From assembly GCA_036702475.1 (NCBI GenBank), contig JAUBTL010000010.1: 24,000 nucleotides of DNA; one strand, given 5' to 3'. Source of the stretch: Microcoleus sp. D2_18a_B4. GTDB lineage: Bacteria; Cyanobacteriota; Cyanobacteriia; Cyanobacteriales; Microcoleaceae. Made by a program: the position numbers and the translations under genes. This document shows, one piece after another, positions 8,158 to 13,442 of this stretch (position 1 is the stretch's first letter; the number at the start of each line of letters is the position of its first letter). The notes beneath the pieces were generated by a model that made no database searches, was not told the origin of the DNA, and was given only the letters and a program-made list of their open reading frames with translations.

Positions 8158-8191
8158 TTGCTGAAAAATTTGCTATGTTGGTTTGCAAGTA

Positions 8192-8629
8192 ATGACAACT
8201 ATTTACCGCAGGGAACGCCATTCTGTTACAGAACTTAAGATACACTTGGTCTGTGTGACAAAGTATCGTCGGTCTGTCTTCACAGGTGAAAGTATTGATT
8301 TGATTGAAAAGTCGTTTCGAGAGGTGGCTGAAAAAATGAATTTTCAAGTGCTGGAATTCAATGGCGAAGGCAATCATGTTCACGCGCTGATTGAGTATCC
8401 GCCTAAGTTGTTTATCTCTCAAATAGTTAACGCATTAAAAGGCGTTTCTAGCCGTCGTTACGGACAGGCTGGACATAAGAAGCCCCATAAAGAAGCATTG
8501 TGGAGTCCTAGCTATTTTGCTGTTTCTGTAGGGGGTGCGCCCTTAGAAGCTTTAAAGGAGTATATTAGAAATCAAGAAAAGCCGTCCACTGAAGAAGGGG
8601 CTGGTATCCCAATTTCTTGGTCAATCTAA
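8192..8629 (+). CDS. tnpA: IS200/IS605-family Y1 (HUH) transposase TnpA
   Basis: The ~145-aa ORF carries the family hallmarks: LKIHLVCVTKYRRSVF at the N-terminus, the HUH motif in GNHVHALIEYPP, SRRY, LWSPSYFAVSVGGAPLEALKEYI, and the catalytic-Tyr region. ATG at 8192 is the preferred start; the track ORF begins at TTG 8183. Confidence 0.9.
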   Translation: MTTIYRRERHSVTELKIHLVCVTKYRRSVFTGESIDLIEKSFREVAEKMNFQVLEFNGEGNHVHALIEYPPKLFISQIVNALKGVSSRRYGQAGHKKPHKEALWSPSYFAVSVGGAPLEALKEYIRNQEKPSTEEGAGIPISWSI

Positions 8630-11169: not shown

Positions 11170-11781
11170 ATGACTTATCCAGATCGATCGGGCAGTCCAC
11201 TCACTGATCCTACAATCGTCAATCCGCTGGTGGATTACCACGATCAAGTGAGGTGGGGGCCAATTTTGGCAGGAATTGCGATCGCTCTGGGCACTCAACT
11301 AATTTTAAGCGCTTTGGCAATGGCGATCGGATTAACCGCAGGTGCAACAGGCGCGGATGCAGGTTCCGTTGGTTTTGGGGTCGTAATTTGGTCGATTATC
11401 AGTTTGCTGATTTCCCTATTTTTGGGCGGTTGGGTAATGGCTCAAAGCTGCGGGCCGATGACCAAGAAAACAGCATTTTTGAATGCAGCAATTCTTTGGG
11501 GAACTACATTAGCACTTAGTGCTTGGTTATTAGGAAGCGGGATATCGGGTGCTGTTGGCGCTGCGGCTGCTAATGCTGGAGAAATTGCCAATCAAGTACA
11601 ACAACAGGGCGGCGTTAATATACCGAATCAAGCGCCGAATGTAGACCCAAATCAAGTTCGCGATATAGCTGGTAATACAGCTAAAGCTGTTTGGTCATTT
11701 CTACTTGGCTCTTTGCTGGGTTTGGCAGGGGCAATGAGTGGTGCTGCTCTTGGCGCTCGCAAACCTCGCGTTTATGCTTGA
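11170..11781 (+). CDS. Hypothetical integral membrane protein (Gly/Ala-rich, about 4 transmembrane segments)
   Basis: 203-aa ORF with several hydrophobic stretches (ILAGIAIALGTQLILSALAMAIGL; VVIWSIISLLISLFLGGWVMA; AAILWGTTLALSAWLLG; WSFLLGSLLGLAGAMSGAALG). It contains a HIP1 site at 11278-11285, consistent with a native gene. Confidence 0.65.
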   Translation: MTYPDRSGSPLTDPTIVNPLVDYHDQVRWGPILAGIAIALGTQLILSALAMAIGLTAGATGADAGSVGFGVVIWSIISLLISLFLGGWVMAQSCGPMTKKTAFLNAAILWGTTLALSAWLLGSGISGAVGAAAANAGEIANQVQQQGGVNIPNQAPNVDPNQVRDIAGNTAKAVWSFLLGSLLGLAGAMSGAALGARKPRVYA

Positions 11782-11795
11782 TTAGCGGTCAACCA

Positions 11796-11829
11796 CCCAC
11801 CACTAATCGGAGTACCGATATAGTGGGGG
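11796..11829 (+). repeat. Left subterminal imperfect hairpin of the IscB element
   Basis: CCCACCACta-atcgGAGTACcgata-taGTGGGGG. The stem carries a conserved A/G mismatch. Stem and loop core match the hairpin at 13327-13361. Confidence 0.65.
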
Positions 11830-12035
11830 CACAGAAATTGCCAAGTTGACCAGTCTAGGTGTTAAATCACTACGTTTAAGGCAAGTGTTAAAGACCTACC
11901 AGAGAATGCGTTGCTAGTTCTGTGCTCTAGAACTTAAAAGTTAAACAGGTGTAAGGGTTAAGCCAGTGCTTTTAAGATAGTTACCGACCTTAAACATTGA
12001 CGAAGCTAACATTACCCCGAAAGGGAGGACTTAAA
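11829..12035 (+). ncRNA. Candidate IscB omega RNA (HEARO-type scaffold); the 5' end, including the guide, is not resolved and may start further upstream near 11782-11800
   Basis: The 254-nt stretch between the upstream stop (11781) and the iscB ATG has no credible ORF. It contains nested complementary segments: 11829-11836 gcacagaa / 11918-11925 ttctgtgc; 11933-11940 cttaaaag / 11969-11976 cttttaag; 11874-11881 gtttaagg / 11988-11995 ccttaaac (possible pseudoknot); and a CCC-GAAA-GGG tetraloop hairpin at 12016-12025 that runs into the GGAGG Shine-Dalgarno sequence. The position and orientation, immediately 5' of iscB, are those reported for omega/HEARO RNAs. Confidence 0.6.
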
Positions 12036-13307
12036 ATGTCTAACTTTGTTTTTGTACTAGATACCCAAAAACGACCGCTCAATCCAATCCACCCAGGAAT
12101 GGCCCGTAAATTGCTAACTAATGGCAAAGCTGCTGTTTTTAAAAGGTATCCATTCACACTAATTCTCAAGGTAGAGGTGACAGCAACCCAAAAACCAATC
12201 ACTCTCAAAATAGACCCTGGCTCTCAAACCACTGGATTCGCATTACTGCAACGAGAAAAAGTAATCTTTGGTGCCGAACTAACTCACCGAGGTCAAGCTA
12301 TTAAAGCCAGCCTTGAATCTCGTCGTTCATTGCGTAGAGTCCGGAGGAATCGCCATACTCGCTATCGTCCAGCTAGATTCCTAAATAGAACTCGCCTTAA
12401 AGGTTGGCTAGCCCCAAGTTTGCAACATCGCGTTGAAACAACTATAACATGGGTGACTAAATTGATGAAAGTAGCCCCCATTGTTTCTATTGTTCAAGAA
12501 CTTGTGCGGTTTGACTTACAACAATTAGAAAACCCGGAAATTTCTGGAATCGAGTACCAACAAGGCGTTTTGTGTGGCTACGAGGTTCGCGAATACTTGC
12601 TCAACAAATGGGAGAGAAAGTGTGCTTACTGTGGTGTTACAAATACACCATTACAAGTCGAACATATTCATCCTAAAGCTAAGGGTGGTTCTAATCGTAT
12701 TTCTAATCTTTGCCTTGCTTGTGAAAAGTGCAATATCAAGAAAGGAACTCAAAATATAGAGCAATTCCTGTCTAAAAAGCCAGAGGTTTTAAAACGGGTT
12801 TTGTCTCAAGCAAAGCGTTCTTTAAAAGATGCGACAGCAGTCAATTCAACTCGTTGGGCATTATTTAATCGGCTTAGCATGATTGGTTTGCCTGTTTCTA
12901 CTGGCAGTGGTGGCTTAACAAAGTTCAATCGCACTCGATTAAGTCTAGCTAAAACTCACTGGTTAGATGCAGCTTGTGTAGGGAACGTTGAATCGCTGAA
13001 AATTTTAACAAACAAGCCGTTGTTAATTAAAGCTACTGGGCATGGGACGCGCCAAATGTGTCGTACCGATAAGTTTGGATTTCCATGTCGCTATGTTCCC
13101 CGGCTTAAGTTTGTTAAAGGTTTTCAAACTGGAGATATTGTCAAAGCAATCGTTACTTCTGGCAAGAAAGTTGGTAAATATGTTGGGCGTGTTGCCGTTA
13201 GAACGAGTGGTTCATTTAATATTGCCGCATCAGAATTGGTGTCAGGGGTTAGCCACAAATATTGTTCAATTATTCACAGAAAGGATGGTTATTCGTATGC
13301 AGCATAA
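12036..13307 (+). CDS. iscB: IscB, RNA-guided DNA endonuclease of the OMEGA family (split RuvC with inserted HNH; Cas9-ancestor type)
   Basis: 423 aa counted from ATG 12036, with GGAGG 7 nt upstream; the track's TTG 11997 start adds 13 aa that I consider unlikely. The domain order is complete: PLMP-like N-terminus (VFVLDTQKRPLNPIHPGMARKLL...AAVFKRYPFTLIL); RuvC-I (KIDPGSQTTGFALL); Arg-rich bridge helix (SRRSLRRVRRNRHTRYRPARFLNR); RuvC-II (IVQELVRFDLQ...GIEYQQG); HNH (CAYCG...LQVEHIHPKAKGGSNRISNLCLACEKCNIKKG); RuvC-III (THWLDAACVG); and a C-terminal TAM-interaction-like domain (GFQTGDIVKA...GKYVGRVAVRTSGSFNI). Confidence 0.9.
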   Translation: MSNFVFVLDTQKRPLNPIHPGMARKLLTNGKAAVFKRYPFTLILKVEVTATQKPITLKIDPGSQTTGFALLQREKVIFGAELTHRGQAIKASLESRRSLRRVRRNRHTRYRPARFLNRTRLKGWLAPSLQHRVETTITWVTKLMKVAPIVSIVQELVRFDLQQLENPEISGIEYQQGVLCGYEVREYLLNKWERKCAYCGVTNTPLQVEHIHPKAKGGSNRISNLCLACEKCNIKKGTQNIEQFLSKKPEVLKRVLSQAKRSLKDATAVNSTRWALFNRLSMIGLPVSTGSGGLTKFNRTRLSLAKTHWLDAACVGNVESLKILTNKPLLIKATGHGTRQMCRTDKFGFPCRYVPRLKFVKGFQTGDIVKAIVTSGKKVGKYVGRVAVRTSGSFNIAASELVSGVSHKYCSIIHRKDGYSYAA

Positions 13308-13313
13308 ACCTTG

Positions 13314-13374
13314 CCCCCCTTGGACTCCCACCACGCTCCCTGAGTACAGGTGAGCGTGGGGGTCTCCAAGGGGG
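13314..13374 (+). repeat. Right subterminal hairpin of the IscB element (may double as the iscB terminator)
   Basis: The inner stem-loop CCCACCACgctc-cctGAGTACaggt-gagcGTGGGGG (13327-13361) is homologous to 11796-11829. It is extended by an outer stem cccccttggac / gtctccaaggggg. It starts 7 nt after the iscB stop. Confidence 0.65.
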
Positions 13375-13442
13375 AAGACAGATGAACGAGCTAAAAACCT
13401 TTTATAAGGTTTGGGCATAGAGATTTAAAAGAAGATGAAGCG

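Follow-up and report, generated by a model that had tools for sequence, protein, structure and literature searches.

Two hairpins of similar sequence stand on either side of an intact iscB gene in a 24,000-nt stretch of contig JAUBTL010000010.1 of the cyanobacterium Microcoleus sp. D2_18a_B4 (hereafter the window, i.e., the whole stretch that was analysed). They raise the question of whether they are the ends of a mobile DNA element, structural modules of the transcripts of iscB and its guide RNA (ωRNA), or repeats that happen to lie there. A first-pass annotation of the window had read them as the left and right ends of an IS200/IS605 element, and had pointed to the dispersal of the hairpins in related DNA and to empty sites in related strains as the places where this could be checked. 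The analysis reported here set the window against 160 related iscB loci, 80 of them from genomes of cyanobacteria (mostly Microcoleus) and 80 from metagenomes (labels such as L001 denote loci fetched for comparison). The results indicate that positions 11788–13381 very probably form a non-autonomous IS200/IS605-family element whose sole cargo is iscB with its ωRNA and whose subterminal imperfect palindromes are the two hairpins; a TnpA transposase acting in trans would transpose it.

Boundaries and target site of the element

The element is 1,594 bp long (11788–13381, no strand assigned), and its limits were drawn from the points at which homology between loci ends and from empty sites. Likeness between loci begins at GTCA(A/G), i.e., at window position 11788, which is also position 1 of the HEARO model for the ωRNA, and ends at CAG-ATGA, with complete divergence outside. 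An exact-sequence look-up of the proteins flanking the element in the window gave no match, and the comparison with empty alleles was reached through homologues. The empty sucD site (L102 and L103) reads gggaaaaa|ATGAATTT, and in L012, L013, L038 and L125 the element is found exactly at the bar, with 0 nt duplicated or lost. Beyond the element, the occupied L040 differs from the empty L116 and L118 by 0 nt, and the occupied L123 and L126 differ from the empty L149 by 1 nt. Because these precise empty sites fix both ends, the element is 11788–13381 and the host target motif (TAM) is the ATGA at 13382–13385 on the plus strand (TCAT on the minus strand), which lies outside the element and is also present in the empty sites. 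The insertions at the sucD, L040 and L123 sites are precise, with neither terminal inverted repeats nor target-site duplication, and the empty sites in related loci coincide with the boundaries that flank the hairpins. Among the loci of the genome set, TCAT (ATGA on the iscB strand) adjoins the element wherever this end can be defined; in the window the flank reads ATGAA, or TTCAT on the opposite strand. Several copies are found in one genome, and copies within a genome are 94–97% identical across the full length of the element.

Structure and covariation of the two hairpins

The two hairpins, L at 11796–11829 and R at 13327–13362, both on the plus strand, are the only occurrences of CCACCAC-N10-30-GTGGGG in the window, against 0.01 expected from shuffled sequences, and the version of the motif with a GAGTAC core is found at the same two places only. 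Folded as a single strand, hairpin L reaches -12.0 kcal/mol (z = -5.1 against shuffles) and hairpin R together with an outer stem reaches -28.2 kcal/mol (z = -7.3). Their common fold consists of a 3-bp foot (CCC/GGG), a bulged A (11799 in L and 13330 in R) and CCAC/GTGG, followed inwards by a complementary stem specific to each copy, one further bulge on the 3' arm (A11820 in L and T13351 in R) and an AGTA tetraloop closed by a G-C pair. The outer stem around R (13315–13374, plus strand) is formed by 10 bp between 13315–13324 and 13365–13374. The foot of the hairpin lies 8 nt inside one boundary of the element and 19 nt inside the other, with both hairpins on one strand; the 8 nt on the side of L are constant among the related loci. 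Read as minus-strand DNA, L is the right-end palindrome (IP_R) and R is the left-end imperfect palindrome (IP_L); as plus-strand RNA, L is the first internal stem-loop in the guide-adaptor part of the ωRNA.

This architecture is conserved far beyond the window. Aligned without gaps, the 22 distinct type I hairpins (the type found in the window), taken from either end of related elements, fit a single architecture of 34 nt in which 98% of the cells are paired and 8 of the 14 pairs show compensatory changes, compared with 30–51% paired in slid controls. For the distal end including the outer stem, 96.5% of the cells are paired, with compensatory changes in 11 of 21 pairs; the core of the outer stem shows them in 5 of 7 pairs among 23 relatives. 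In the relatives, the hairpins were delimited as single stem-loops of at most 46 nt, from a direct reading of the ends together with constrained folding; a strict regular expression for the hairpin missed most relatives, and unrestricted minimum-energy calls ran into the next hairpin of the ωRNA. The identity of the stems in the two copies of the window (CCCACCAC) is limited to the subfamily of the window, and elsewhere only the architecture is common to both ends.

Several details of the first-pass annotation can be settled on this basis. The span it gave for L, the shared orientation of both hairpins on the plus strand and the covariation-like pattern that it noticed in the inner stem all hold, while the end of R, which it placed at 13361, is at 13362. 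What it described as an A/G mismatch in the stem is a bulged A, because the two arms are 8 and 7 nt long. GAGTAC is common to both copies as it stated, but it is not a loop: it contains the G-C pair that closes the AGTA tetraloop. The outer stem around R is likewise real, 10 bp long and covarying, but its suggested role as an intrinsic terminator of iscB transcription is rejected: a scan of 13315–13385 finds nothing, the stem is followed by AAGACAGATGAA with no T-run, and host genes follow.

Matched ends across relatives and an element without iscB

Two types of hairpin are found at the ends of the related elements, i.e., type I (34 nt, with an AGTA-type loop) and type II (21 nt, with a TAAA loop), and the type is the same at both ends of an element. 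In the genome set, 28 elements are I/I, 27 are II/II and none is mixed. The metagenome loci, used as a replicate, gave 37 type-concordant elements, and the sole "mixed" case (L166) is a misclassification by the regular expression. The hairpin motifs are also confined to these ends: across 630 kb of related DNA, 93 of the 94 sites are at the ends of iscB elements, which answers the question of dispersal, and one is an orphan. This orphan, a type I-like hairpin on the minus strand of L031 (4416–4451), lies about 55 nt past the ATGA of another element, on the opposite strand and near the end of the contig, and could represent one end of yet another element.

A PATE-like mini-element of 373 nt (L077, 2072–2444) possesses the full HEARO structure (117 bits) and the distal end, without iscB in between, and ATGA comes after it. 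About 300 nt downstream stands a full iscB element that belongs to a different subfamily and has the same orientation. The arms of the type II hairpins occur in two versions, CTCAG/CTGAG and CGAGCG/CGCTCG, and a non-pairing mix of one arm from each version is found in several copies, including the distal ends of L031, L056 and L028, the ω end of L039 and the L077 mini-element.

Cleavage motifs, candidate DNA guides and a proposed model of transposition

By the convention for insertion sequences, the canonical top strand of these elements is the complement of iscB (Meers 2023, bioRxiv 10.1101/2023.03.14.532601), and the left and right ends as named in the first-pass annotation are therefore to be exchanged. 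The cleavage motif (TEM) is formed by the terminal 4 nt of the right end, TGAC at 11788–11791 on the minus strand; it is TGAC or TTAC in every readable locus and covaries with the guide tetranucleotide. The candidate right-end DNA guide, TGTG at 11830–11833 on the minus strand, lies directly 5' of the foot of the hairpin and fits TGAC by pairing T:G, G:T and G:C; in the majority of relatives, this position holds CAAG. At the left end, a linker of 19 nt (13363–13381, minus strand), the length found in most type I elements, separates the cleavage point from the foot of the hairpin and contains the candidate left-end guide GAGA at 13363–13366. Guides of this end, GAGA here and GAAA in other subfamilies, fit TCAT under the pairing rule of IS608, in which G at position 1 pairs with C at position 2, G at position 2 with C at position 1, and position 4 with position 4. 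Judged on sequence only, 66 of 76 right ends allow Watson-Crick or G:T pairing at each of the three positions. In 62 of 68 cases with TGAC, position 1 of the guide is C or T, and in 7 of 8 cases with TTAC the guide is AAAG, the latter across two unrelated hairpin lineages and types. The 80 metagenome loci gave the same picture, with 29 cases of TGAC-CAAG, 10 of TTAC-AAAG and 7 of TTAC-GAAG. Because the HEARO RNA model does not pair the covarying positions with each other, the covariation of guide and TEM points to an interaction at the level of DNA.

We propose a model in which the minus strand would be the active one. Its left end would be read as host TCAT|, the 19-nt linker ending in GAGA, IP_L (13362–13327) and the reverse complement of iscB, and its right end as the guide TGTG, IP_R (11829–11796), 8 nt ending in TGAC| and the host flank. 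A Y1 HUH transposase (TnpA), provided in trans, would act on single-stranded DNA by binding both hairpins, each guide tetranucleotide would pair with its own cleavage motif, and TnpA would cut at both bars. A single-stranded circle would then be released, the donor resealed and the circle inserted 3' of a further TCAT. Transcripts of the iscB strand that read through from the upstream gene would include the right-end region as the guide-adaptor part of the ωRNA, with about 16 nt of the upstream flank as guide. The site resealed after excision, i.e., a match to the guide followed by ATGA, would be a substrate of IscB and might thereby permit IscB-mediated homing.

iscB, its ωRNA and the upstream flank

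The iscB gene (12036–13307, plus strand) encodes an intact protein of 423 amino acids that matches the Pfam RRXRR model over positions 1–174 of 174 (3e-73) as well as three HNH models, and that matches in sequence the solved IscB structures of the PDB with E values down to 2e-37. It thereby shows the hallmarks of an IscB, a RuvC-like (RRXRR/bridge helix) fold with an inserted HNH domain in a protein of about 400–500 amino acids. The ωRNA scaffold HEARO (RF02033) is found at 11788–12015 on the plus strand with 130.6 bits in a cmscan search (gathering score 83, E = 3e-27, model positions 1–211 of 211); the match is co-oriented with iscB and ends 21 nt before it. Its P1/S1 stem, formed by 11788–11793 with 11844–11849 (GUCAAC/GUUGAC), encloses hairpin L, which is the first internal hairpin of the HEARO model, with CCC...GGGG as its consensus foot. 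The hairpin at 11796–11829 is hence a modelled part of the ωRNA as well as a DNA end.

Directly 5' of HEARO position 1 lies the host flank TTATGCTTGATTAGCG (11772–11787, plus strand), which consists of the end of the upstream gene and 6 nt more. The upstream gene (11170–11781) is co-oriented with the element and stops 6 nt before it, and a scan found no promoter-like site between the two. The flank would be transcribed as the guide of the ωRNA, for which we infer a length of 16 nt. In empty alleles, the sequence of this flank runs straight into ATGA.

The transposase and alternative explanations

The window encodes one Y1 transposase near the element, a tnpA gene (8192–8629) about 3 kb away with an intact Y1_Tnp domain and 145 amino acids. 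Its relatives normally have 132 amino acids and are divergently paired with tnpB (L087–L091), in insertion sequences whose ends read GAAT, hairpin, 10 nt, TCAA| and TTGAC|, 20 nt ending in CAAG, hairpin. The copy in the window is a remnant of such a tnpA-tnpB IS605, of which only 8174–8625 is kept, without tnpB; the hairpin that overlaps the stop codon is mutated and the stop is lost, which extends the open reading frame (ORF) to 145 amino acids. In L082 (M. vaginatus CP031705.1), tnpA is absent at this place and the end of an alpha-amylase gene lies upstream of an SLH gene; the host sequence at that boundary is GTCAAT, which fits the TTGAC target.

Several observations weigh against the view that the element is mobilised by TnpA through its hairpins. 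A Y1 transposase gene was detected within 3–4 kb of none of the 160 iscB loci, which is why the elements are regarded as non-autonomous, and autonomous tnpA-iscB copies were found neither among the 80 genome loci nor among the 80 metagenome loci. The cognate TnpA was not found: Y1 genes are present in these genomes, and none could be tied to ends of the type found in the window. The tnpA of the window is not supported as the cognate transposase, as its family pairs with tnpB and has different hairpins and a different target, and as this copy is truncated; it could conceivably still act in trans. About 13% of the right ends break the pairing rule, and the end hairpins of one subfamily (subfamily D) are unlike each other in sequence. 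The comparison of the window with its own empty site is not simple, because 88 nt of host DNA are absent beside the element. Moreover, covariation separates neither DNA from RNA nor one strand from the other.

This last point leads to the reading in which the hairpins serve as RNA only, L as a module of the ωRNA and R as a stabiliser, processing signal or terminator at the 3' end of the iscB mRNA, their likeness being due to a common RNA-binding partner such as IscB or an RNase. It would agree with the place of L within the Rfam HEARO consensus, with the location of both hairpins on the transcribed strand and with the outer stem around R, whose covariation would be expected of RNA as much as of DNA; a function of this stem as RNA only is conceivable. 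Such a reading nevertheless leaves unexplained the fixed distances of 8 and 19 nt to the DNA boundaries, the mini-element that keeps both ends, and why the terminal tetranucleotide covaries with a tetranucleotide to which the RNA model does not pair it. Termination at R would moreover be costly, since host genes begin 20 nt beyond it, and the hairpin lacks a T-run; in the related IsrB, nicking persists when SL1, the equivalent stem-loop of its ωRNA, is deleted (Hirano 2022, PMC9581776). For these reasons, we consider an RNA-only role of the two hairpins improbable. That they are generic dispersed host repeats, similar to repetitive extragenic palindromes (REPs) and placed beside iscB by chance or by the activity of a REP-associated tyrosine transposase (RAYT), is extremely improbable. 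Short dispersed palindromic repeats are abundant in cyanobacterial genomes and a Y1-type transposase gene does lie 3 kb away, yet that gene is of the classical tnpA-tnpB IS605 type, the window holds only the 2 copies, and the 93 of 94 sites in related DNA that are iscB element ends stand at fixed distances from the boundaries.

A further alternative is that the elements now move mainly by cleavage guided by IscB and its ωRNA followed by recombinational homing, with the hairpins as non-functional relics of an ancestor mobilised by TnpA. The lack of tnpA near all 160 loci would be expected in that case. Many of the loci are orthologous insertions common to several strains, and the within-genome copies, at 94–97%, are not identical, so that transposition cannot have been very recent. 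Against it, compensatory changes have preserved hairpins, guides and TEM among elements with only 65–80% identity, which argues for continuing selection, and insertion at a new site is impossible by homing alone, yet about 90 independent sites are occupied. We therefore regard this alternative as highly improbable, and hold that the hairpins are very probably the subterminal ends of the element, which TnpA would recognise.

Comparison with known systems

Hairpin ends, TAM and TEM, DNA guides, the overlap of the ωRNA with the right end, PATE-like derivatives and a TAM of the NTGA/TTCAT type are already published for IscB elements. For GstIscB, the TAM is TTCAT and the HEARO RNA upstream of iscB is delimited by the transposon's right end, and TAM and TEM covary with the DNA guides in the Geobacillus elements (Meers 2023, bioRxiv 10.1101/2023.03.14.532601). 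Like the elements described here, the IscB elements of Geobacillus stearothermophilus (ISGst family) are mostly non-autonomous, with subterminal palindromes on one strand, a corresponding TAM (TTCAT, or ATGAA on the iscB strand, and TCAT/ATGA here), guide covariation and PATE-like derivatives. They differ in host phylum and in their TEM (TTCAC versus TGAC/TTAC here), while the 34-nt hairpins with an AGTA loop and the covarying outer stem around the left-end hairpin distinguish the Microcoleus elements. As published, the guide-adaptor region of the ωRNA also encodes sequence of the transposon end, and IsrB can nick without SL1 (Hirano 2022, PMC9581776). In OgeuIscB, the guide adaptor is a single 43-nt hairpin, whereas here a P1 stem encloses two hairpins (Hirano 2022, PMC9581776; Kato 2022, PMC9640706).

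In IS608 of Helicobacter pylori, left cleavage occurs outside the insertion sequence, 19 nt 5' of IP_L, and right cleavage inside it, 10 nt 3' of IP_R (He et al. 2011, PMC3201880); guides of 4 nt lie 5' of the foot of each hairpin and form the crossed pairs C2:G1 and C1:G2 (PMC3201880). The elements studied here share with it a left cleavage site outside the element, the left distance of 19 nt, a right cleavage site inside it at a few nt 3' of IP_R, the placement of the guides, the crossed pairing and the absence of inverted repeats and target duplication. In contrast, IS608 carries tnpA and tnpB, uses the motifs TTAC and TCAA, has a right distance of 10 nt rather than 8, and has its accessory guide RNA at the opposite end relative to the cargo gene. 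The tnpA-tnpB IS605 elements of Microcoleus (L087–L091) occur in the same host genomes and follow the same IS608-like logic, but their hairpins are unlike type I, their target is TTGAC instead of TCAT and their cargo is tnpB instead of iscB. There is a likeness between their tnpA-side hairpin, CCGTCC...GGACGG, and the distal hairpin found in iscB subfamily D (L057–L059, L068 and L070): the latter, GCCGTCTTGAAAGACGGGG, is similar to GCCGTCCTAGAAGGACGGGG in L087 (3390–3435). This resemblance in sequence hints that some iscB subfamilies may share an end type with insertion sequences that bear tnpA.

Insertion at start codons and TAM-bounded deletions

Because the target motif is ATGA, the element can land exactly between the 5' untranslated region of a host gene and its ATG. 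The ATG at the junction opens an ORF of at least 100 amino acids in 49 of 89 independent junctions (55%), compared with 17% among the 1,376 ATGA sites of the same DNA that are non-disruptive (P ~4e-16) and 14% of all other ATGA sites. Ten of the junction ORFs encode recognisable host proteins, SucD, GT4 and DICT sensors among them, with N-terminal Pfam domains that start at residues 4–15; junctions of this kind are found, for example, at L012 4345, L066 1812, L026 4341 and L036 4240. The ATGA of the window itself opens an ORF of only 12 codons. We found no mention of such an enrichment of start codons at the junctions in the searchable literature.

A Shine-Dalgarno (SD)-like tract lies 4–18 nt before the ATG of the junction in 35 of 61 loci. 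In the window (13365–13381), the 3' arm of the outer stem (AAGGGGG) is purine-rich, and its SD-like tract AAGGGGGAAG ends 7 nt before the host ATG, while the ends of other subfamilies read GAGGTTTT|ATG or GGAGGTATTCTG|ATG. Such a tract might supply or mask the ribosome-binding site of the docked host gene. The start of sucD is occupied in L012, L013, L015, L038 and L125 and, in other organisms and by another subfamily, in L072 and L150 (element starts GTCAAT versus GTAAAC). Likewise, the start codon of a host gene whose product begins MTEQ... carries an element of one subfamily in L048 and of another in L080, again in separate organisms. Such shared occupancy could reflect recurrent insertion or a very old common insertion.

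At three insertions, the host DNA that separates two target motifs is missing, over 88, 46 and 140 nt; the left junction falls on one ATGA/GTGA in the empty allele, and the right one on the next. The deletion of 88 nt is found in the window and in L001, L016 and L105, where the empty allele reads TTAGCG|ATGA...GAGAAG|ATGAACGAG; the junctions of the window (11787/11788 and 13381/13382) were compared with L082 (3113–3210). L015 lacks 46 nt relative to both the precise insertion in L012 and the empty L102, and L085 (3384–4987) lacks 140 nt relative to L082, in this case bounded by GTGA. Candidate mechanisms are a second insertion nearby with recombination between the copies, or the joining of the right end by TnpA to a nearby cleaved motif. 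Whatever its origin, a TAM-bounded deletion puts a different flank in the place of the ωRNA guide.

Implications

The concept of an IscB element with TnpA-type ends is not new, and only the docking at start codons and the TAM-bounded deletions could add something to it. Taken together, these two features raise the tentative and rather doubtful possibility of a transposon that docks at start codons and takes over expression of the docked gene, and whose ωRNA guide is re-programmed by TAM-bounded deletions. If this were true, the element and read-through from iscB would control the docked gene, given the SD-like terminal 20 nt and the lack of a terminator. The end architecture that was worked out experimentally in Geobacillus is confirmed here in a second phylum and across 160 loci. 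For an IscB family found abundantly in Microcoleus as well as in other filamentous cyanobacteria, the analysis provides base-exact ends, the target motif, the DNA guides and the position of the ωRNA guide, which can be used for annotating the elements, for choosing a TAM for this IscB and for designing a mini-transposon assay.

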